Assembly: GCA_013387215.1 (NCBI GenBank)
Contig: WARW01000001.1
Span: 12,735 to 76,734, forward strand
Direction: 5' to 3'
Origin: Patescibacteria group bacterium
Lineage (GTDB): Bacteria > Patescibacteriota > Microgenomatia > UBA12405
Length of the DNA: 64,000 nt
Shown here: positions 3,170 through 30,853 of the stretch, in pieces
How the letters are laid out: each line of letters begins with the position of its first letter
How positions within the stretch are numbered: the first letter of the stretch is position 1
Notes under the pieces: generated by a model
What the model was told of the DNA's origin: nothing
Seen by the model: the letters and a program-made list of their open reading frames with translations, nothing else
Database searches by the model: none
Made by a program: the position numbers and the translations under genes

Positions 3170-3402
3170 GACCGTAACCGATTTTCAAGAATTGTACTTT
3201 CGTAAAACAGGCCAAAAAATTTCTGATGAGGAAGCCAATGAAAAAGCATTAAATTTACTAACCTTTATGAAGTTAATTTATAAACCAATAAAATTCGACA
3301 AACAAAATTAGAAAAATAAATTATGTTAGTATTTAATTGCAACCAGAAAAATTCGTTGAAGTTTTTTAATGCCCTCATTGGACAGGACTTCAACGGTTCT
3401 GG

Positions 3403-5319
3403 TTGCACCAGTGGGGGCATTTAAGTATGGATAATACAAGCAAAATTGAAACAGGATCAAGATATTTTATTTATTGCCGCAAGTCATCAGACTCCGAAGA
3501 TAAACAAATAGCTTCATTGCCCGACCAAATAAAAGTGATGACTGAGTTGGCACACAAACTAAAATTAAAAATAGTTGATTCTCTCCAAGAGAAAAAATCT
3601 GCCTTTAAAATAGGAAGACCAGTATTTAATCAAATGATTGAAAGAATAAGTAGAGGTGAGGCCGACGCTGTTTTATGTTGGGATCCATCAAGAATTGCTC
3701 GCAATAGTAAAGATAGTGGCAACTTTATTTATCTTATGGATGAAGGAAAACTAAAAGAACTTAGAACTCCAAACAAGACTTTTTACAACACCGCTGATGA
3801 TAAGATGATGCTTAACGTTGAATTTACTATGACTAAAAAATATTCGGATGATTTAAGTGTTAATGTGCACCGCGGTAATCGCCATAAATTTTTTGATCTT
3901 AAGGAATGGGGTGGAGTCGCAAAACCAGGATACCTTAATTACACTGATCCATTGACCAAAGAAAATCATATAAAAACAGACCCTGATAGATTCGAGATGA
4001 TTCAAAAAGCAATCCTTCGGATTTTAGATGGAACTCATACCCCCATGGAATCACTGCGTGAACTTAATAACAAAGGGTATACAACCAGAAAAACAAAGAG
4101 TCTGGGTGGTAGACATTTAAGTAGGGCATCATTTTACAGAATATTAGCTGATAGTTTTTATTGTGGAGTTATGAAAAGAAAAGTAGGTGATAATCGTGAG
4201 GTAGGGAAAGGTTCCCATGAACCAATGATTTCAGAAGCTCAATTTGATTTATTGCAGATAAGACTCGGTAAAAAAGGTAAGCCTAGATATGGTAAAAATA
4301 ATTTTCCATATAAAAATTTATTGAAATGTGGTGAATGTGGTGGATCCGTTACCTGCGAAGAAAAATATCAGATTATCTGTCCTACTTGTAAAACTAAATT
4401 CCATAAAGGCAAAAAAACGGATGAATGTCCGAATTGTCATATGAAGATAGAGGAAATGAAGGATCCAAAACTACTACATTATATTTTTTATCACTGTACA
4501 AAGAGGGTTCATAAAGATTGTAGTCAAGGGAGTATAACTTTGGAAAATATGGAAAAAGAAATCGACTACAAACTGCAAAAGTTTGAGATTGATCAAGATT
4601 ATCGCGATTTTGCCATCGACCATCTGAAGGAATTGAACACCGCCGAGGAACAAGAACAGGAGACTTTAAGGGACAGGCTGAATAAGAGACTGGAAGAAAC
4701 CAACTGGAGCATCAATAACTTGATTAGATTGAGAACCAGAAGAGAAAATGTAAATGACTATGAAAACGAGGACAAACAAAAAGCCTACGATGAAGAAGAA
4801 GATAGATTATTGGCTGAAAAGAAATTACTTAAAAAACAAATAGATGAGGTGGACGGTCAACAGATCGAAAGACTTGAAATGGCGAAAGAAACTTTCGATT
4901 TTGCTTACTATGCCCGCCACTACTTTGCTACTGGAGACGTCCTTACTAAAACCAAAATTCTGGCGAGACTTGGTTCGAACCTAACTATTAAAGATAAAGA
5001 ATTCCATATAGAAGGGGAAAATGCGTTTTTCTTAATCGAGAAAGGTAAGAAGGAGATTGCCGATATCATAAATTCGTTAGAACCTGAAGAAATACCGAAT
5101 AATTCCAAGGGATTATTAGCACTCGAACCAGTTTGTCAATCTTGGCGGAGGAGGTGGGATTCGAACCCACGAGTCCTTTCGAACACACGCTTTCCAGGCG
5201 TGCGCCATAAACCACTAGGCGACTCCTCCTTAGGTGAGAGTATTATATCTTATTACTCTATTTCTTCCAAAGACTCAAAAGAATTTACTGTTTTATTAGG
5301 GCTTCAAGCTGGTTTTTAG
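3403..5319 (+). CDS. Large serine recombinase (resolvase/invertase N-terminal domain, recombinase domain, Cys-rich zinc ribbon, coiled-coil C-terminus).
   Basis: N-terminal YFIYCRKSSDSEDKQ...SLPDQ (catalytic Ser context) and GEADAVLCWDPSRIARN. Central recombinase domain. CGECGG...CPTCKTK...CPNCH zinc-ribbon cluster. Lys/Glu-rich coiled coil. The last ~60 codons run antisense through a tRNA and are probably not real. The true start is probably M at 3427. Confidence 0.7.
   Translation: MHQWGHLSMDNTSKIETGSRYFIYCRKSSDSEDKQIASLPDQIKVMTELAHKLKLKIVDSLQEKKSAFKIGRPVFNQMIERISRGEADAVLCWDPSRIARNSKDSGNFIYLMDEGKLKELRTPNKTFYNTADDKMMLNVEFTMTKKYSDDLSVNVHRGNRHKFFDLKEWGGVAKPGYLNYTDPLTKENHIKTDPDRFEMIQKAILRILDGTHTPMESLRELNNKGYTTRKTKSLGGRHLSRASFYRILADSFYCGVMKRKVGDNREVGKGSHEPMISEAQFDLLQIRLGKKGKPRYGKNNFPYKNLLKCGECGGSVTCEEKYQIICPTCKTKFHKGKKTDECPNCHMKIEEMKDPKLLHYIFYHCTKRVHKDCSQGSITLENMEKEIDYKLQKFEIDQDYRDFAIDHLKELNTAEEQEQETLRDRLNKRLEETNWSINNLIRLRTRRENVNDYENEDKQKAYDEEEDRLLAEKKLLKKQIDEVDGQQIERLEMAKETFDFAYYARHYFATGDVLTKTKILARLGSNLTIKDKEFHIEGENAFFLIEKGKKEIADIINSLEPEEIPNNSKGLLALEPVCQSWRRRWDSNPRVLSNTRFPGVRHKPLGDSSLGESIISYYSISSKDSKEFTVLLGLQAGF
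5143..5229 (-). tRNA. tRNA-Ser (anticodon GGA) with long variable arm; CCA encoded
   Basis: Reverse complement reads GGAGGAGTCGCCTAGTGG...CTGGAAAG...GGGTTCGAATCCCACCTCCTCCGCCA. 7-bp acceptor stem, T-loop TTCGAATCC, anticodon loop CTGGAAA. Confidence 0.8.
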
Positions 5320-5803: not shown

Positions 5804-5844
5804 TTTTATAAATAGTTTCTGATTTTACCAGGTTTATTGCAATG

Positions 5845-5918
5845 TGTGTTCGAGAGGATTTGAACCTCCAATCACTCCCTTCGGAGGGGAGTACTCTATC
5901 CAGTTGAGCTACGAACAC
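5845..5918 (-). tRNA. tRNA-Arg (anticodon CCG)
   Basis: Reverse complement reads GTGTTCGTAGCTCAACTGGATAGAGTACTCCCCTCCGAAGGGAG...GGAGGTTCAAATCCTCTCGAACACA. Anticodon loop CTCCGAA. Confidence 0.8.
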
Positions 5919-21205: not shown

Positions 21206-22351
21206 TTACTCTCTAATCGCTTGGGCAATCACACTAACCACACCTCGATCCAAAGGACTTGGCAAAATAAAATCGACTGTTAGTTCATTTTCTTTAACGT
21301 AATTTGCCAAAGCCACAGCGGCCGCTAGTTTCATTTTATCCGTTATCTTTCTGACCTTGTTGTCCAAAGCACCTCGAAAAACTCCCGGGAAAGCCAAGAC
21401 ATTGTTAATTTGATTTGGATGATCGCTTCTGCCCGTGCCCACAATAAAAGCTCCCGCTGACTTTGCCATTACTGGATCAATTTCAGGAATCGGATTTGCC
21501 ATGGCAAAAATAATTGGCTTTTCCGCCATCGAATTAACCATTTCCTCAGTGGCCACATTTGGCCCGCTGACCCCAATAAAAACATTTCGATTTTTCATTG
21601 CCGTTGCCAAATCTCCGCTCAAATTTTCCTTATTAGTAAATTCCAAAAATTCTTTTTTCTCGTTATTCAAATCAGTTCTGTCTTTGCTGATTATTCCTTT
21701 TGAATCGACCACAATTAAATCTTCAAAACCATACGCACACAAAAGTTTTGTGATTGCCGTTCCGGCTGCTCCCGCTCCGCACACCACAATTTTTGTATCT
21801 TTTGGTATCTTATTTGCCAATTTACAGGCATTAATCAATGCCGCTAAAACTACAATTGCCGTCCCGTGTTGATCGTCATGCATGACAGGGATATTCAAAA
21901 TTTCTTTTAATTTATTTTCAATATAAAAACATTTTGGTGCCGAAAAATCTTCCAAATTAATTCCGCCCAACCCTGGCGCAATATTTTTGACAATATTAAT
22001 AATTTCATCTGGGTCTTGAGTGTCCAAAACAATAGGGAAGGCGTCAACATTTCCAAACTCTTTAAACAATAAAGCTTTTCCTTCCATAACAGGAAGCGCT
22101 CCGTATGGCCCGATATTCCCGAGTCCCAAAACCGCCGATCCGTCCGAAACCACCGCTACCGTGTTACTTTTAATTGAATATTCGGAAGCTAGTTCTGGGT
22201 GTTGTCCCAAAAGTGTCGACACTGCCGCCACCCCAGGGGTGTATGCCACGCTCAAATCTTCTTTTGTTTTCAGTTCTTCAAATTTGCTTGCGATTGCAAT
22301 TTTACCTTTAAATTGTTTGTGTTTTTCGAGTGAAGTTTGAGAGTAATCCAT
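21206..22351 (-). CDS. NAD(P)-dependent malic enzyme (small-form malate dehydrogenase, decarboxylating)
   Basis: AYTPGVA, VVSDGSAVLGLGNIGP, Rossmann motif VVCGAGAAG. About 380 aa small-type malic enzyme. Confidence 0.85.
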   Translation of the reverse strand: MDYSQTSLEKHKQFKGKIAIASKFEELKTKEDLSVAYTPGVAAVSTLLGQHPELASEYSIKSNTVAVVSDGSAVLGLGNIGPYGALPVMEGKALLFKEFGNVDAFPIVLDTQDPDEIINIVKNIAPGLGGINLEDFSAPKCFYIENKLKEILNIPVMHDDQHGTAIVVLAALINACKLANKIPKDTKIVVCGAGAAGTAITKLLCAYGFEDLIVVDSKGIISKDRTDLNNEKKEFLEFTNKENLSGDLATAMKNRNVFIGVSGPNVATEEMVNSMAEKPIIFAMANPIPEIDPVMAKSAGAFIVGTGRSDHPNQINNVLAFPGVFRGALDNKVRKITDKMKLAAAVALANYVKENELTVDFILPSPLDRGVVSVIAQAIRE

Positions 22352-22380
22352 AATTGATTATACCTATTATTAATATTGCT

Positions 22381-24714
22381 TCATGGGTGAATTGGAACTG
22401 TACTAGAACCATTATTTTCAGTTTTTAATGGTTCCTCTAAAATTTTGTAATGTTCAGGGAATGTTACTTCTATCATTTCAAGAAGATATTTTATAATTTT
22501 CTGAGATTCAGGTATTAAACAAGGGTCAAATCCTTTACCTGTTATATGAGATTGGTCATTTACAAATTTATAAATAGCAGTAAGTTTGTTTTCGTCATTA
22601 AATTTATCTTTTAATGTTTCAAGTTTTTTGTACATATTATCATTGTTTGGAACTCTAAACATTAAAAAAGTATCAAGTAGTTTTCTTGCTATATTTGGTA
22701 AGTTATAAACAGAGGCGATCGTCCCATCTGATTTAAAAGTGTAAAGAGTTTTAAACAAATAAGTATATTCTGTCTCATGATCCTTTAAATCCTTATCTAA
22801 AATTGAAATGTAAGCAACCCGTCCCAGAGTAGAATCAGAATTATTAACCATATAATAACTCTTTGACCCTTGAACATTTGAGTTTTTCAACCAGTTTAAT
22901 AACAATCTCAAAAAATCAAAATTATGAGTTAATAAAAATACTTGGTGTGCATCTTTTACTGCATTTTTAAGGAAAGAAAAAGCTTGAAACAAAGAATTGG
23001 AATCTAGACTGGAAATTGGATCATCTATAACCACAATTCCATTTGATACATCAAAACTTTGATCTTTTAAATGAATTATAAAATAAACAAAAGCTATAGC
23101 GGTTTTTTCACCTTCACTTAAATATTTTGCAATTTGTCCATTTCTTTTAATTAAATATCCATCGTCAATTTCTTTTTGAATTCCGTTTTCTATTATTTTT
23201 CTAGTGCTCGGTTCAAATATTAGCTCATTTCTACCTAAATATATTTCTAGAAATTTATTGATTTCGTTACAAGCCTTATAAGAAGATGATATTAGGTTTC
23301 TATTGGTATCAATTCTTTCTTTTAGCTTTAAAACACCTATGTTATTTGGAATATTTTCATCACCATTGTTTAATATTGTTATCTCTGCATAGTAATCATT
23401 TATTTTGGAAGATATCTTATTAATATCATTATAGATAGAACTTAAATAATGAGTTTCTAATAATTTCTGTGCAGATTCTTTATTTAGCTTAAAGTTTTTA
23501 GTTTTATCATTGTGTTTGTTTATCTCGTCGTTTATTTTTTTTATCGACTCTGTATATTCAACAGTATTAATATCCATTTCAAATTTAATTAATTCTGCAG
23601 TCTTAGTTTTTTTACTTTTTAAAATTTCAATAATTTTATCTAAGTTATCTAATAAATTTTGTTTTTCAGTTTCATATAATTTTACTGATGACTGATAAGA
23701 AACTTGTAGTTCATCATATAAATTAGCCTTATCAATAGCCCTGATTTGATTTAATGAGTACTGAATATTAAGGATACGTTCTATTAAACCGTCTATCTTA
23801 CTTTTAAGTTCTAAATCTGCCTCATTAAAATATTTTGACAATTCTTTTACTCGTTCTTCCAATAAAGGTTGAGAACAAAACTCACACACTTTTGAATGGT
23901 GAATTTTGTGTAGCTCTATTCCTTTTTCAACCCATACTGACAAATCATTATTGATTCTTAGTCTTTCGATAATGATAGTATCAATTTTTGTTAAACATAT
24001 TTTTTTTGCATCTTCAAATATTTCTTTTAAAACATTTGCTAGTGTGATAGGTTTATTTTCTAGGTCGATCCATTTTATTTCCTTTAATTCTTCTAGGCAA
24101 TTTTTTTCTAGTTGTTTTAAAGTTAACAAATGAATTTTCAACTCTTTTTCAGTTAAAATTTTTGGTTCTTTTATTAATTCAAAGGATTTTTCCGCATCAG
24201 GTTTTCTATAGTTTCTACTTAATAGTCCTCCAGTATTTATACTAATTAAAGACGCAATGTCAGTAAACATTTTTCCTTTTTGTTTTTCTAAATCCAATAT
24301 TTTAGTATTATCTTCATTAATCTTTGCAGATTTTTCATTTAGTAATTTTTCATCAATATCAATTTGTTCAGCAATTAATTTATTTTCTTCACCAAGTATA
24401 TATATTGATTTAGCCCTTCCTGTAAGAACTTGGATGTTATTAGTTATATAGTCTTGATTAAAAACTCTAACTAATTGAGGAAATTTAGAACCATTCTTAA
24501 AAGTACCAATATCTGTTTCAATCTCATATTCTAAGTTAGGAAATTTTTGAGAGTATCCATTTTCTAAAGACTCAAAAAGGTTGGTTAATGTAGTTTTTCC
24601 GCTGCCATTCCATCCATAAAATAAATTGTATTTACTAAATTCTGGTAATGTTGAATTAACCAGATAGTCAGAAAATATTCCTAAGCCTTTTATCTTTTTT
24701 ATTTTTTTAATCAC
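22381..24714 (-). CDS. RloC/PrrC-like AAA_13 family ATPase. ABC-like ATPase head with coiled-coil insertion carrying a CxxC zinc hook. Putative defence or anticodon-nuclease-like protein.
   Basis: N-terminal IKKIKGLGIFSDY...FYGWNGSGKTTL (Walker A). Coiled coil with HHSKVCEFCSQPL hook. C-terminal signature-like LSEGEKTAIAFVYF, Walker B VVIDDPISSLD, H-loop LLTHNFDF. Confidence 0.6.
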   Translation of the reverse strand: MIKKIKKIKGLGIFSDYLVNSTLPEFSKYNLFYGWNGSGKTTLTNLFESLENGYSQKFPNLEYEIETDIGTFKNGSKFPQLVRVFNQDYITNNIQVLTGRAKSIYILGEENKLIAEQIDIDEKLLNEKSAKINEDNTKILDLEKQKGKMFTDIASLISINTGGLLSRNYRKPDAEKSFELIKEPKILTEKELKIHLLTLKQLEKNCLEELKEIKWIDLENKPITLANVLKEIFEDAKKICLTKIDTIIIERLRINNDLSVWVEKGIELHKIHHSKVCEFCSQPLLEERVKELSKYFNEADLELKSKIDGLIERILNIQYSLNQIRAIDKANLYDELQVSYQSSVKLYETEKQNLLDNLDKIIEILKSKKTKTAELIKFEMDINTVEYTESIKKINDEINKHNDKTKNFKLNKESAQKLLETHYLSSIYNDINKISSKINDYYAEITILNNGDENIPNNIGVLKLKERIDTNRNLISSSYKACNEINKFLEIYLGRNELIFEPSTRKIIENGIQKEIDDGYLIKRNGQIAKYLSEGEKTAIAFVYFIIHLKDQSFDVSNGIVVIDDPISSLDSNSLFQAFSFLKNAVKDAHQVFLLTHNFDFLRLLLNWLKNSNVQGSKSYYMVNNSDSTLGRVAYISILDKDLKDHETEYTYLFKTLYTFKSDGTIASVYNLPNIARKLLDTFLMFRVPNNDNMYKKLETLKDKFNDENKLTAIYKFVNDQSHITGKGFDPCLIPESQKIIKYLLEMIEVTFPEHYKILEEPLKTENNGSSTVPIHP

Positions 24715-24854
24715 AGTAATTCAATAATAATTATTTTTCACAAAAGTATCTCATATTTAAAAATAATAAATACAAGGAAAAATACGCCAAAGTTGTTCAT
24801 TTTTTGTTCATAATTCAGTGATATACAAAATATAAATTACAAATTAAATATACT

Positions 24855-25175
24855 GTGGTTAATATAAAAAAGTTTAAATGTGATCTGTGTGATAAAGAGA
24901 TAGAAATAAATTTCCTCGGAGATATGGAAAATTTTAATAAAGACCCAAAACTTTTAGAAGAATTAATAGATAAAGGAAAACATTATCATTGGATTTATAA
25001 TCATAGAAGATGTGCAATTTGTGGAAAATTAATAGAGTCTGAAGATTTAGATTTAATCAAAAATCAGCATGGAATTCGGATAAGTGAGAATTATATAAAA
25101 GAGACATTGCCAAAAGAAAGTAATGGTGAATTGCTCATTATACATAAAAAATGCTTTAAAAATCGGTCTAAATAA
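24855..25175 (+). CDS. Small zinc-ribbon protein (two CxxC pairs)
   Basis: CDLCDKEIE...CAICGKLIE...HKKCF. Confidence 0.4.
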   Translation: MVNIKKFKCDLCDKEIEINFLGDMENFNKDPKLLEELIDKGKHYHWIYNHRRCAICGKLIESEDLDLIKNQHGIRISENYIKETLPKESNGELLIIHKKCFKNRSK

Positions 25176-25203
25176 TAAAGTTAAAAAATAACTTTAATAA
25201 GAT

Positions 25204-25539
25204 TTACATTCTTCTCCACACCACCAACGCCAATCCAATCACAAAAATAATCGAAAAAATCGTTTTATTATTTCTAGCCACAAATTTTGGCAGGAAAATA
25301 TCAAATCCATCCTCATGATTTTTCGTATATTTATAAGCCACCAAAGTCAGAGGGCAGTGCCATTTGAAAAACAGCAAAACTAAAGATTCTCCTAAAATTG
25401 TCGCAATTGAAATATAAACCAAAAGATTTTGAATATTAAAAATTCCGGCGATCAAAATATAAACAATCATTGAAGCCATCACTGCCCAAATAGAAGTGTG
25501 CAGAATTTTTATTAACAACAGCTTTGTTTTAATATTCAT
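25204..25539 (-). CDS. Small integral membrane protein (3 TM)
   Basis: Hydrophobic helices. No other motif. Confidence 0.4.
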   Translation of the reverse strand: MNIKTKLLLIKILHTSIWAVMASMIVYILIAGIFNIQNLLVYISIATILGESLVLLFFKWHCPLTLVAYKYTKNHEDGFDIFLPKFVARNNKTIFSIIFVIGLALVVWRRM

Positions 25540-25578
25540 TTTTCTGAAAAATTAAATAAATAATTTAATAATTCGATA

Positions 25579-26442
25579 TTAAATTTCGTATTCTAGGGCC
25601 AATATCTTGAAACAAGTACCATATCTGGTCCCAACTCCAAATTGTTTTTTTACCGTACTATCGCCCATTTCCACAATAGGCATTATTACACCAAACTCTT
25701 CTTGTGAATTAAAATCTTTTTGACCGTCTGAATTTTCAATGGCATATTTTATAGAAGGATTTAATATAACTTTTCTACCCTTTGGGTCAGGAACTCTTGG
25801 AGCAATAGAAATTGTCATTTCTGTTTTTAAATCTGGTGTGTCACTCAACCAATCTTGTACTTGGCTTTTATTATCTTTATTGTATAAACGAATTGTCTTT
25901 AAATCACTATCAAAAACACTTAATCGATAATATGGTTGTGGGGCTAAACCAAATTTATATGACCCATATGTTAAGGCTAATGTAGGTGGTTTTTTGTTGT
26001 CAGGTTTAATTTGTACGCGAATTTTTAAGTTTGTTAATTGGGCAGGAAATTCTTCTTTTGTCCACATACTCCAAAATTCAAAGTTTTTTACAGTCGGACA
26101 ATAAAAGCCATCATTATCCATTCTAAAATTATCAATTATCCAATTCTTTTCATTAAAACTAGCCTTTACACCTTCTAAATTTTTTGGACCAGGTGTTTCT
26201 GGCGTACCAAGCACTTGGGGATTATTTGGACAAAATTGTTGTATTATCTGAGTTTGGTTTGAAACGAAAGCAGTAAATTTTTTTTCCAAATCTTTACTAT
26301 TCCAGTAATGAGCTAATATTATTAATCCAATAATAGGTATGTAATAAACAAAAATATAAAATAAAATCGTTTTAACCCAACCATACTTTTTTATGGAATT
26401 TTGAACCTCCTCTATTTTTGGCATTTGTAAATTGTCCACCAT
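25579..26442 (-). CDS. Hypothetical membrane-anchored extracytoplasmic protein
   Basis: N-terminal TM (ILFYIFVYYIPIIGLIILAHYW), then a soluble domain. Confidence 0.4.
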   Translation of the reverse strand: MVDNLQMPKIEEVQNSIKKYGWVKTILFYIFVYYIPIIGLIILAHYWNSKDLEKKFTAFVSNQTQIIQQFCPNNPQVLGTPETPGPKNLEGVKASFNEKNWIIDNFRMDNDGFYCPTVKNFEFWSMWTKEEFPAQLTNLKIRVQIKPDNKKPPTLALTYGSYKFGLAPQPYYRLSVFDSDLKTIRLYNKDNKSQVQDWLSDTPDLKTEMTISIAPRVPDPKGRKVILNPSIKYAIENSDGQKDFNSQEEFGVIMPIVEMGDSTVKKQFGVGTRYGTCFKILALEYEI

Positions 26443-26796
26443 TAATATAACTATATCTTATAAAATATTCTATTAACACCGACTGTTCATAATTGATACA
26501 ATAAATATCATTTAAATATATTACAAGTTATATTTTATTAAACACCAAAAAAATCCCCTCAATATAATTCCTGTCTTACGATACAAAATACCAAAGGACA
26601 ACAGAAATAGAATCAATAATATTTTGCGATTTAATCGATATTCAGTTTCTCAATGATTTCTATAACTTTATTAACAACAACTTTATCAATTTATTCATTA
26701 AATTATTGTAAATTATATATTTTTAAATTTTTCCAAAAAAATACCCGTCAAATATTTTGTCCGAAGACAAAACACCCAAACGGGTTTTCAAAAATT

Positions 26797-27279
26797 TCAA
26801 GAGTTTTCAATTTTCAGTTTTTTGATGGTTCTTTCCACCGCATCGGCCACCTTATCAACGTAAGAGAAAAACTTCTCATTTTCATTGAAAGTTGCATCCT
26901 GCAATCCTTCATCCACATATTGTCTTAATAATGGATTGGAAGTTGTTTTATCAAGCAATATTGGTCCACCGATCATGGCGATTGGATAAACATCAATTAA
27001 AGCTGTTTTTGTTGTCACCCAGGAATGTCTGTATGGTCCATAAACAAAATGTCCATCATGGACGGTCACTGGAAAAAATCTGGCAATGGCTCGGGCCAGC
27101 ATATGGCAGGAGACCAAAACTGGAATATTTCTGGCATCCAACCCTAAATTAACTTCCGGCATTTCCCAGATTACCTTTTGGATATTTGCAAAAAGTTTCT
27201 GGTCTTCTTGGTTAACCAATTTACATGCGTATGGTTTCATCGCATCTACCTCCTCAAATTTTTGATTATCAAAGTACAA
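26797..27279 (-). CDS. Hypothetical protein. The ORF begins with TTG.
   Basis: The reverse-complement start reads TTG TAC TTT GAT, so the true start is TTG or the internal Met. No domain recognised. Confidence 0.4.
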   Translation of the reverse strand: MYFDNQKFEEVDAMKPYACKLVNQEDQKLFANIQKVIWEMPEVNLGLDARNIPVLVSCHMLARAIARFFPVTVHDGHFVYGPYRHSWVTTKTALIDVYPIAMIGGPILLDKTTSNPLLRQYVDEGLQDATFNENEKFFSYVDKVADAVERTIKKLKIENS

Positions 27280-27440: not shown

Positions 27441-28235
27441 CTAAATGAATTCCTGATTCTGCAAACTTCCTAAAAGTTTATATACTGCCTCCTCGTACAG
27501 GGGATGATCATCACCCAACGTCTTCATTCTGGTAATAAATTCTTGGGTTTCTTCCTCAGTCGGAATTTCACATTTTGTCACATTCCTGTCATATGGAAAA
27601 TAAATTCTATTGGCTGAATCTTCGGTAAGCTTCAAAGCATTTTCCGGGCAGCCCTCAAACTCGACAAGAAATTGTCCCAAAAGTTTGGTTGTTCCTTCAA
27701 CAGGGCCGGGTATTAAAGACTTAATGTAATACAATTCCTGTTGTCCTTCTTGGGCGTTTTTAATATACCCGTAAGCATTTGTGCCTCTGGCGCTCAAAGT
27801 TACTTTAATAATTGCATTGTCTTTTGGTAATTTGACCTCTTCAATCTCTAAACTTTCCTCTGGAGCGCTTCTTTGTTTGTCTACGTCTAAAAGTATTTTT
27901 TCGATTAATTCCTTATACTGGGGATTATATTCTTCCATTGTTTCCATATGGCTCACAAATTCGCCGATTTCCTTTTTTGTTGGTTGGCTGTAAAACTTTA
28001 CTCTGGAATCTCCGGGGAAATAAACTCGATTTGTGCTGCCTGGTGCCAGCTTTAAAGCTAGCTCTGGGCACTCAATAAACTCGTGTAAAAACTGTCCTAA
28101 AAGCATGGTTTCTTGGGTAATCGAACCCTCACGTACTTGGTCAATAAAATAAGCTTCTTTCCGATCCCTCATTGTTAAAACCACCAATGTTCTTTGCTTT
28201 GGTATAAACGGATTTTTCCTTACCATTTTATCCAT
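27441..28235 (-). CDS. Hypothetical protein composed of two tandem homologous domains
   Basis: Internal duplication: FLHEFIECPELALKLAPGSTNRVYFPGDSRVKFY...KKEIGEFVSHMETMEEYNPQYKELIEKIL is echoed by FLVEFEGCPENALKLTEDSANRIYFPYDRNVTKC...EEETQEFITRMKTLGDDHPLYEEAVYKLL. Confidence 0.45.
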   Translation of the reverse strand: MDKMVRKNPFIPKQRTLVVLTMRDRKEAYFIDQVREGSITQETMLLGQFLHEFIECPELALKLAPGSTNRVYFPGDSRVKFYSQPTKKEIGEFVSHMETMEEYNPQYKELIEKILLDVDKQRSAPEESLEIEEVKLPKDNAIIKVTLSARGTNAYGYIKNAQEGQQELYYIKSLIPGPVEGTTKLLGQFLVEFEGCPENALKLTEDSANRIYFPYDRNVTKCEIPTEEETQEFITRMKTLGDDHPLYEEAVYKLLGSLQNQEFI

Positions 28236-29041: not shown

Positions 29042-30853
29042 ATGTCAAGAAACATTGAGAGTCCAAGTTTCGTACAAATCAAAGAAGCTTTGGCTTGTCC
29101 GCATATTCAAAAAACCGCTCGCCCTATTGGTGTCGACTTGTTTTATTCGGATCTGGAAAGTGCTAAGGAAAGAAGACAGCTTTTGGAAAAAATGAGCCAT
29201 CTTTTTGATCAGATTCCAGACCTAAACATGGATGTCGATACCGCTTTAAAAAATAATTTAATTAGCTCTGAAAACTTATCTAATGTTTATCAGGATTTAT
29301 CTGATTTCATCAGCTCAGATTCCAATCATTCTCGTTTAGCTTTATATCTGCCTTTCCAAATTATTCCCAATTTAAATCCAGACAATTCAAAAAATATAAC
29401 CGAATCTCAGGTTAAATTTGCTAACGTCTATAAAAATGCTTGGATGCAATTGTTGTTTGAAAGTGATATTCGGGCGGATTTTTTAAACGGAGACACATTA
29501 GAACCAGGCCTAGGCGAACCAGCTCGAGTCAGAAAAGCAGCCCATTTAATACCGGAAATTTTAAAAAAGGGAATTATTGATAAAGAAGATATTGACTTAA
29601 TATTAGAAATAAATAAATCAGATGATGAATTATGCCATTCAATTAACGAAGGAGTAATTGCCTACGAGAAATTAAATAAATCAGAAAAATCTGAGGAAAC
29701 TTCAGAAATTTTTGATTTAGATAATTTAAAAAAAGAACTGGCTCTTATTGATAAAAATTACGGACCAAATTCAGAAAATATTTCCAAATTAAGTCTAAAG
29801 GAAAAATACGATTCGCCCAATCTGCTTGATTCAAAAATCAGCCAAGAAAGAGCTGCTTGGATAAGAAGAACTAAATATGGAGAAACTTTAAATAAATATG
29901 CCCAAAAAATTCATAATTTTAATACCATTGATTCTTTATTAGAAGCAGATGAACCAGTCTATAAAATACTTGGCTTAAAAGCGATTTTTAATCAAAATCA
30001 ACCGACTGATATCTTTGATAAATTAATTGAGGAACAGTGGTTGACTGGTAATAATCAAATCAAGGAAGCAATAATTACCGGCCTAAGTTATTGGCAAAAA
30101 AATAATCTAATTTCTTCACATTACCTAGATCGATTCGGAATTAAAATTCCTGATTTATCACAACCGTTTTCAGTTGATTTAGATAAATTAATTTTGTCCG
30201 ACCTTAAAAATATGACAGAGGCTGTAGAAGGAATTAAAAATGAATCAATTCTTTCTGAAAATATTTATCCAACCATATTAGTATTTGGATCAAGAGTCAA
30301 AGGATATTCTGGTCTTGATTCTGATTATGATATCGCTGTCTTTTTTAAACCAAACGCCTTAATTGATAACCGGAATTCAATTCTTCAATCAATCAAAGCG
30401 ATTCCTTCATTAAAAGAAGTAGGGAAGATATGTGAATTTTGGACAACCGAAAATGATGGAAAAATAGGTCTTAGACCAATCTCAGAAAAAGTTTGGGGCA
30501 TGATTGGACCGGAACAAATTCACTTTTTATTTGGAGGTGCTTGGATTGGTGATAAAACCGATATAAATAAAATACAGCAGGATCTTTTGGAAAAATATTG
30601 TGATTTATCAAGATTTGACCATCAAAAAGATTTGGTACGATCTCGCTTGCTGGGTAATTTAGAATACGATATTCTTCAATGCCGTCTTATGCATAAGGGG
30701 TATCGAAAATTTTATCCTGATAAAATTGATCCGAAAATTAAAAGTATAAACGCTATTGATGGAAATAGTGCCTTTTGGGATCCTGGGTTTAGACGAGTGG
30801 CAACGCAACTTTTTTTGAGTAGAGTATTTTTACCTGATTTATCGGGTAAATAA
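29042..30853 (+). CDS. Large protein with a C-terminal Pol-beta-superfamily nucleotidyltransferase domain. The N-terminal ~400 aa are unknown.
   Basis: GS-x9-DxD motif ILVFGSRVKGYSGLDSDYDIAVFF (MNT/KNTase-like). Convergent with the PurA-like operon, with a 15-nt overlap. Confidence 0.55.
   Translation: MSRNIESPSFVQIKEALACPHIQKTARPIGVDLFYSDLESAKERRQLLEKMSHLFDQIPDLNMDVDTALKNNLISSENLSNVYQDLSDFISSDSNHSRLALYLPFQIIPNLNPDNSKNITESQVKFANVYKNAWMQLLFESDIRADFLNGDTLEPGLGEPARVRKAAHLIPEILKKGIIDKEDIDLILEINKSDDELCHSINEGVIAYEKLNKSEKSEETSEIFDLDNLKKELALIDKNYGPNSENISKLSLKEKYDSPNLLDSKISQERAAWIRRTKYGETLNKYAQKIHNFNTIDSLLEADEPVYKILGLKAIFNQNQPTDIFDKLIEEQWLTGNNQIKEAIITGLSYWQKNNLISSHYLDRFGIKIPDLSQPFSVDLDKLILSDLKNMTEAVEGIKNESILSENIYPTILVFGSRVKGYSGLDSDYDIAVFFKPNALIDNRNSILQSIKAIPSLKEVGKICEFWTTENDGKIGLRPISEKVWGMIGPEQIHFLFGGAWIGDKTDINKIQQDLLEKYCDLSRFDHQKDLVRSRLLGNLEYDILQCRLMHKGYRKFYPDKIDPKIKSINAIDGNSAFWDPGFRRVATQLFLSRVFLPDLSGK

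Follow-up and report, generated by a model that had tools for sequence, protein, structure and literature searches.

A gene that probably encodes a stand-alone anticodon nuclease of the RloC family is present in a 64,000-nucleotide stretch of contig WARW01000001.1 (assembly GCA_013387215.1, positions 12,735 to 76,734, forward strand) of a Patescibacteria group bacterium. This stretch is called the window, and all positions are counted from its first letter. The probability of the assignment, which is made by sequence comparison, is put at about 0.78. The predicted protein of 777 amino acids (aa) consists of an ABC/Rad50-like ATPase head, a coiled-coil/zinc-hook insert and a C-terminal domain of the anticodon-nuclease type. 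Davidov and Kaufmann defined RloC by three features: the motifs of an ABC ATPase, a CXXC motif within a Rad50-like coiled-coil insert, and a triad at the C-terminus (PMC2610378).

The feature itself is confirmed and lies far beyond chance, and the initial interpretation is supported in all but the link to the zinc-ribbon protein. An initial annotation, made from the letters alone, had described the product as an AAA_13 ATPase of 777 aa, and a full-length match to Pfam family AAA_13 (PF13166) bears this out, with 433.3 bits against a cut-off of 36. The match spans residues 12-744 and model positions 3-711 of 713, and its E-value of 2.9e-129 excludes a chance match. The PADLOC model PDLC04894 of family PDC-S06 matches with 776 bits as a single gene, residues 1-761 being aligned to model positions 1-736 of 740, and seven other PDC-S06 models also match. 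The predicted N-terminus, MIKKIKKIKGLGIF (MIKKIKKIK.LGIF), agrees with the consensus of the relatives at this end, and the gene boundaries are therefore sound.

ATPase head, zinc hook and C-terminal domain

Conservation was followed in two sets of relatives. For the close set, the 120 relatives that ranked best in the database (47-55% identity) were aligned. The broad set (n = 80) holds the window protein and 79 others, drawn from species-representative genomes that span many bacterial phyla and include one archaeon; these 79 are 23-50% identical to the window protein over the full length.

The ATPase motifs are strongly conserved in both sets (Table 1). G34, G39 and K40 of Walker A are kept in 119/120 close relatives, and the H-loop histidine H597 in all of them. 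In the broad set, residues S533 and E536 of the ABC signature, D564, D565, P566, S568, S569, L570 and D571 of the Walker B/D-loop segment, and H597 are each found in 80/80 sequences. The initial annotation had placed Walker A at about residue 36 and the signature, Walker B and H-loop near residues 560-620. Walker A (34-41), Walker B and the H-loop are where it put them; the signature, at 532-536, is slightly N-terminal of that range. Walker B (D564-D565; 23020-23025, minus strand) has the form hhhhDD-P, as against the usual ABC form hhhhDE. Because D564, D565 and P566 are invariant in the broad set, this form belongs to the family as a whole and does not mark the window copy as defective.

The N- and C-lobes of the head are separated by an insert of 385 residues (109-493), which is predicted to form coiled-coil arms. 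The coiled-coil insertion with a CxxC hook of the sequence VCEFCSQP, read from the letters in the initial annotation, is upheld by the relatives: the hook occupies residues 276-283, and C277 and C280, two of only six cysteines in the protein, are found in 120/120 close relatives and in 79/80 sequences of the broad set. The motif lies in the loop between helices 256-272 and 286-293, and the hook region is alignable with that of Geobacillus kaustophilus RloC as printed in the supplement of PMC2610378. C277-E-F-C280 is a predicted zinc hook.

An AlphaFold2 model of the whole protein, built on 30 relatives, has a mean pLDDT of 81.7. The head is beta-rich (residues 1-108 and 494-640) and the insert is 73% helical, with one helix of 53 residues at 109-161. 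The best Foldseek matches in the PDB are heads of SMC, Rad50 and RecN with coiled coils, LmuB of Lamassu and a retron-associated ATPase. At the sequence level, neither the whole protein nor a profile of the C-terminal domain found more in the PDB than marginal ABC ATPase or spurious matches.

The C-terminal domain (residues ~640-767) is all-helical in the model and is predicted to be an anticodon nuclease of HEPN-like fold. A separate AlphaFold2 model of residues 636-777 has seven helices (pLDDT 78.8, pTM 0.77). HEPN proteins make up 13 of the top 21 entries in its Foldseek list from the PDB, including HEPN toxins, Csm6', AbiV, AF_0298 and an SSO HEPN protein. The TM values reach 0.50-0.55, and with a best E-value of 0.75 none is significant. 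The RloC and PrrC nuclease domains have been assigned to the HEPN superfamily (Anantharaman et al. 2013, PMC3710099), and the list of matches, though not conclusive alone, is consistent with this assignment.

The nuclease motif of the C-terminal domain, which the initial annotation had left to be checked, has the pattern R677-X3-D681-X41-S722-H723. R677 is invariant (120/120 close, 80/80 broad), H723 is found in 120/120 and S722 in 118/120 close relatives, and both occur in 80/80 sequences of the broad set. Position 681 is always acidic, with 66 Asp and 54 Glu in the close set and 12 Asp and 68 Glu in the broad set. The published RloC triad is Arg-X3-Glu-X36-52-His, often with Ser before His, and the X41 spacing falls inside this range (PMC2610378). 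In G. kaustophilus RloC (GkaRloC) the triad is formed by R692, E696 and H737, and each Ala substitution abolishes anticodon nuclease activity and toxicity (PMC2610378). As judged from the alignments, the window protein has the RloC triad, the alternation of Glu and Asp in it being conservative and common in nature.

The Asp could also mark a degenerate copy, a decaying passenger in which the change from Glu to Asp has left the ATPase sensor intact and the nuclease weak or dead. The published motif does specify Glu, the E696A substitution kills GkaRloC, and some orthologues were flagged by the RloC authors as having a 'suboptimal' or 'poor' triad (PMC2610378). Degeneration is nevertheless very unlikely. 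Asp stands at this position in 66/120 of the close set and turns up again in separate clades of the broad set, the ORF (open reading frame) is intact and of full length, and N674, R677, K678, F683, L684, P689, N719, S722 and H723 are strongly conserved. The conserved residues around the triad indicate purifying selection on the site.

Table 1. Positions in the window of the RloC-family gene, its predicted parts and its surroundings
Feature	Position	Strand	Basis
RloC-family gene, 777 aa, GTG start	22381..24714	minus	2,334-nucleotide ORF; Pfam AAA_13 and PADLOC PDC-S06 matches
Walker A / P-loop, G34-W-N-G-S-G-K-T41 (GWNGSGKT)	24592..24615	minus	alignment of relatives
Insert splitting N- and C-lobes of ATPase head, residues 109-493, predicted coiled-coil arms	23236..24390	minus	AlphaFold2 model
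CxxC motif, predicted zinc hook, C277-E-F-C280	23875..23886	minus	loop between helices 256-272 and 286-293
ABC signature, L532-S-E-G-E536 (LSEGE)	23107..23121	minus	alignment of relatives
Walker B/D-loop, IVVIDDPISSLD, residues 560-571 (I560-V-V-I-D-D-P-I-S-S-L-D571)	23002..23037	minus	alignment of relatives
H-loop / switch histidine H597	22924..22926	minus	alignment of relatives
C-terminal all-helical domain, residues ~640-767, predicted anticodon nuclease (HEPN-like)	22414..22797	minus	AlphaFold2 domain model
Triad part 1, R677-K-L-L-D681 (Arg-X3-Asp)	22672..22686	minus	alignment of relatives
Triad part 2, S722-H723, 41 residues past D681	22546..22551	minus	alignment of relatives
Low-GC patch, ~4.4 kb, GC 0.23-0.30 vs ~0.35-0.41 in flanks	22350..26800		composition profile
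Divergent AT-rich intergenic spacer, 140 bp, presumably with promoter(s)	24715..24854		sequence
Orphan 106-aa ORF with two CxxC motifs, neighbour only	24855..25175	plus	ORF list

Relatives and their genomic contexts

The searches gave 382 homologues, and 'wobble nucleotide-excising tRNase' is the JGI name of many of the closest relatives. Pieces of published RloC orthologues (machine-read supplement rows, including Marinobacter and Shewanella) match relatives at 65-85% identity, and the relatives matched in this way (L053, L064, L080, L078, L018, L024, L015 and L027) are full-length tblastn homologues of the window protein, with E-values of 1e-50 to 1e-93. Residues ~160-320 of G. kaustophilus RloC, rebuilt from machine-read text that was probably too corrupted, gave no match in the protein database. 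An exhaustive HMMER scan of 1.84 billion cluster representatives returned 1,220 clusters at E<=1e-30. Identity among the full-length matches falls gradually from 54% to about 30%, and the window clade is not set apart from the rest by any gap. Members of the close clade are ~40-55% identical, have an invariant hook C-E-[FY]-C, and many of them are labelled as Patescibacteria/CPR (candidate phyla radiation) or other uncultured lineages.

The PDC families are 'phage defence candidates', picked by guilt-by-embedding among genes that lie within BREX, DISARM or type I restriction-modification (R-M) systems (bioRxiv 10.1101/2024.01.29.577857). From the sequence matches, PDC-S06 and RloC overlap and appear to be the same thing.

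The mechanism of RloC has been worked out with the enzymes of G. kaustophilus and Acinetobacter baylyi (PMC2610378, PMC3458546, PMC3874168). Intramolecular zinc-hook joints keep free RloC dimers silent, a switch that is bypassed by mutations in the hook (PMC3458546). A tRNA that has lost its wobble nucleotide in this way is believed to withstand tRNA repair by the phage (PMC2610378). By analogy, the window protein would rest as a dimer with its nuclease kept silent by intramolecular joints of the zinc hook. DNA ends bound at the heads, e.g., upon phage attack, failed restriction or double-strand breaks, would switch on ATP hydrolysis, which would release the C-terminal RNase. The anticodon loop of particular tRNAs would then be cut, probably with excision of the wobble nucleotide, translation would stop, and the phage would be unable to multiply in the damaged cell. 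The gene would have been acquired horizontally in a low-GC patch of ~4.4 kb and would work without a linked restriction system or a partner gene. Its role would be that known for the family, a suicide or stress defence in bacteria.

Several points weigh against this explanation. PDC-S06, the best named match, is a candidate family by bioinformatic label alone, and we are not aware of a direct demonstration that any RloC protects against phage. The link to the characterised RloC of G. kaustophilus and A. baylyi is indirect, via fragments of other orthologues, and identity to the clades holding the published orthologues is just 24-30%. The fold search of the PDB with the C-terminal domain had no significant match (best E-value 0.75). 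The acidic residue of the window triad is Asp, that of the published motif is Glu, and only E696A, not a change from Glu to Asp, was tested in GkaRloC (PMC2610378).

Both the low identity and the Asp would also fit a protein of the same architecture with a different output, in which the HEPN-like RNase cuts other tRNA sites, rRNA or mRNA, or the trigger is something other than DNA ends. The tRNA targets of RloC already differ, being tRNA-Lys in E. coli for GkaRloC and tRNA-Glu and tRNA-Gln for the A. baylyi enzyme, and HEPN RNases are diverse (PMC3710099). Such a change of output is unlikely for the window protein: the triad, its spacing, the hook and all ATPase motifs are kept across the continuum of relatives without a break at the window clade, and Asp and Glu interchange freely among ~50% identical sequences. 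It is quite improbable that the close clade is a functionally distinct RloC subtype with another tRNA target, cleavage chemistry or trigger, or that the ~4.4-kb patch with its three orphan ORFs is a new multi-gene cassette around an RloC-like sensor-effector.

Genomic contexts were counted over 79 loci of relatives, and Pfam confirmed the type I R-M genes on representatives. At least two type I subunits surround the gene in 12/79 loci and at least one in 16/79, and the typical order is HsdM-HsdS-gene-HsdR. In the original RloC survey, 8/72 genes were linked to an R-M locus (PMC2610378). In other loci the gene is accompanied by DEAD/ResIII helicases with N6_N4 methylases, by serine recombinases or by integrases. 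Within the close clade, a protein of ~50% identity (P0055; L086, 3222-8220, and L087, 127-5125) is the product of the last gene of a DpnII-type operon with the order HTH (helix-turn-helix) gene, Dam methylase, DpnII endonuclease, N6_N4 methylase and AAA_13 gene. The methylase stop and the start of the AAA_13 gene overlap, and there is a serine recombinase next to them. In this case the restriction linkage is to a type II DpnII-like system, not type I. Relatives are thus embedded in DpnII-type type II R-M operons too, not just in type I operons.

Two further members of the close clade, P0002 and P0003, adjoin ParB-N6_N4 methylases and small HTH genes. The start of P0003 is overlapped by 17 nucleotides by a gene for a 65-aa HTH_17/MerR-like (excisionase-type) protein on two independent contigs (L084, 5820-6017; L085, 439-636). 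This gene may be a regulator in the P0003 sub-lineage, and it is absent from the window.

By tblastn, the family was found on 249 plasmids, 168 of them conjugative. One plasmid copy adjoins a restriction endonuclease and ATPase pair, and another lies in a region with RadC, a PDDEXK nuclease and an integrase. A few prophage copies are annotated as 'translation-disabling ACNase'.

These contexts bear on whether the gene encodes a housekeeping ATPase for DNA repair or chromosome maintenance of the Rad50/SbcC/RecN/SMC type. The Foldseek matches to SMC, Rad50 and RecN heads are in line with such a role, and there are weak matches to SMC_N and RecF. The scores are 18 bits against a cut-off of 40 for SMC_N and 19.7 against 172 for RecF. 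The initial annotation would have been overturned by orthologues placed uniformly among SMC/RecN-type housekeeping genes; in the 79 loci and the plasmid contexts, relatives were not found among such genes and instead occur within R-M operons, beside recombinases and on conjugative plasmids. The distribution is patchy and the window gene lies in a low-GC island. No partner of the Mre11/SbcD type is nearby, the neighbours being a malic enzyme gene and orphan ORFs, and the protein has an extra C-terminal domain of nuclease type with a conserved R/D/SH triad. The housekeeping role, hardly credible on this evidence, was rejected on the scores of the hidden Markov models and on context, the similarity of the head being one of fold level only.

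The low-GC patch and its surroundings

The RloC-family gene lies in a patch of low GC content, with one abrupt edge at the 3' end of the gene (~22.35 kb) and the other edge near 26.8 kb. One side is flanked by a block with malic enzyme, Rrf2, hemerythrin and flavodoxin-like genes, and the other by chromosomal genes including that for adenylosuccinate synthetase (~31 kb). The sharp drop in GC and the position of the patch between metabolic genes support recent horizontal acquisition of a stand-alone copy. Judged by its composition, the patch is a probable horizontally acquired segment that carries the gene and three singleton ORFs. A search of the patch edges for mobile-element boundaries gave no flanking repeats other than weak AT-rich ones, and no att-like direct repeats.

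The initial annotation had noted that no type I R-M system adjoins the gene. This holds for the whole 64-kb window, where type I, type III-like, Dam, DpnII, N6_N4 and ParB-methylase queries had no match and no R-M-like gene was found; methyltransferase signature motifs are absent from window ORFs of >=150 aa.

The companions of the gene in the patch are the 106-aa protein with two CxxC motifs (24855-25175, plus strand) and a 111-aa membrane-like and a 287-aa protein (25204-26442, minus strand). All three ORFs are singleton clusters in a collection of 15 billion proteins and are without family matches. In the initial annotation the 106-aa product was a small zinc-ribbon protein that followed the ATPase gene. 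The ORF is in fact on the plus strand: it lies upstream of the ATPase gene and is transcribed away from it, with a spacer of 140 bp between the two. The proposed association is not supported either: among 5.8 billion proteins the 106-aa ORF matches only itself, it has no Pfam, PADLOC or NCBIfam match and no tblastn match in 80 loci, and no small two-CxxC ORF lies beside the relatives, five motif matches being spurious GC-rich antisense frames. The idea of a conserved zinc-ribbon partner was rejected on the strand, the lack of homologues and the lack of a counterpart beside relatives. The 106-aa ORF is probably a real orphan gene that shares the low GC of the patch.

A two-gene system, in which this protein or other patch singletons would regulate the ATPase, act as its antitoxin or be its effector partner, has to be considered since the ORF is adjacent, matches the gene in its very low GC (0.23) and is set off by the short spacer only, and since an ORF of 106 codons is unlikely to be random in DNA of 23% GC. 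Such a system is highly improbable: apart from the missing homologues and the absence of a genuine two-CxxC small ORF near any relative, the contexts in the near clade differ among themselves, and RloC has been documented to have an internal switch and to be transferred without a partner (PMC3458546). The RloC-family gene is better read as acting alone.

Weak expression was noted as a trait of rloC genes (PMC2610378), and the GTG start of the window gene fits it. The divergent spacer has one sigma-70-like match (24790-24763, minus strand). Promoter-like matches are fewer than in shuffled sequences and hence are not evidence, and the scan for promoters and terminators was uninformative. At its other end, the stop of the RloC-like gene is 29 nucleotides upstream of the malic enzyme start on the same strand (22351-22383, minus), and no terminator-like site is predicted between the two. 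Transcription may read through from the RloC-like gene into the housekeeping malic enzyme gene.

Further observations concern other parts of the window. A large serine recombinase ORF (3370-5319, plus strand) is 31% identical (E 5e-48) to the resolvase/recombinase beside one relative (L001). It ends next to or over tRNA-Ser (5143-5229, minus strand), and tRNA-Arg (5844-5918, minus strand) is near. This recombinase and tRNA region, ~18 kb away from the RloC-like gene, may represent an element that has integrated where the window begins. A 264-aa ORF (27441-28235, minus strand) without family match has an internal tandem duplication, the halves being 36% identical over 126 aa (E 2e-24). A 603-aa protein (29042-30853, plus strand) has a nucleotidyltransferase motif of the Pol-beta type at residues 411-454; it scores 30.7 bits with Pfam Polbeta, 31 bits, below the cut-off, with an MntA-like model, and weakly with PADLOC PDC-S09. 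Rfam gave tRNAs only in the window.

Comparison with known systems

The window gene adds one stand-alone member of RloC type, from an uncultured low-GC bacterium, to a family of well over a thousand clusters at 50% identity. It is an ordinary member of a known family and would not surprise a specialist. The 777-aa length falls in the published range for RloC (683-895), the order of the ABC ATPase motifs is the same, the coiled-coil insert has a single CxxC hook at about residue 280 (C291 in GkaRloC), and the Arg-X3-acidic-X36-52-Ser-His triad is at the C-terminus. The GTG start, the usual lack of linked R-M, the horizontal spread and the patchy phylogenetic distribution are also shared. The differences are the Asp of the window triad in place of Glu, which is common to about half of the close clade and appears as a common natural alternative to the catalytic Glu, and the ~24-30% identity to clades with published orthologues. 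Any member of RloC is a reasonable candidate for a direct phage-protection experiment.

The match to PDC-S06 is of full length, and relatives are embedded in type I R-M operons, as in the definition of the PDC families, whereas the window copy is not embedded in any defence system. The apparent identity of PDC-S06 with RloC would give this candidate family a concrete, testable mechanism.

PrrC has an ABC ATPase N-domain, and its C-terminal nuclease domain is homologous and follows the same logic in its triad. With the PADLOC model of PrrC there is a partial match of 29 bits (E=1e-7) to residues 550-752, across the nuclease region. PrrC is, however, a protein of ~400 aa without the coiled-coil/zinc-hook insert, and it is always found in a type I R-M operon that silences it (EcoprrI type Ic locus, tRNA-Lys); it nicks its tRNA, whereas RloC excises. 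Identity with PrrC was rejected on the length of 777 aa with insert and hook, the partial 29-bit match and the lack of any hsdM, hsdS or hsdR homologue in the window. The view of the initial annotation that the protein is RloC-like rather than PrrC-like stands because of the coiled-coil/CxxC insert and the absence of linked R-M.

The ATPases of Rad50/SbcC, SMC and RecN, LmuB of Lamassu and PtuA-like retron ATPases resemble the window protein in the fold of the head, from which a coiled coil emerges, and Rad50/SbcC also has an apical CxxC zinc hook. They differ from the window protein in having no fused C-terminal RNase and in working with separate nuclease or kleisin partners. The arms are much longer in Rad50 and SMC, and the sequence models of these families remain below threshold on the window protein.

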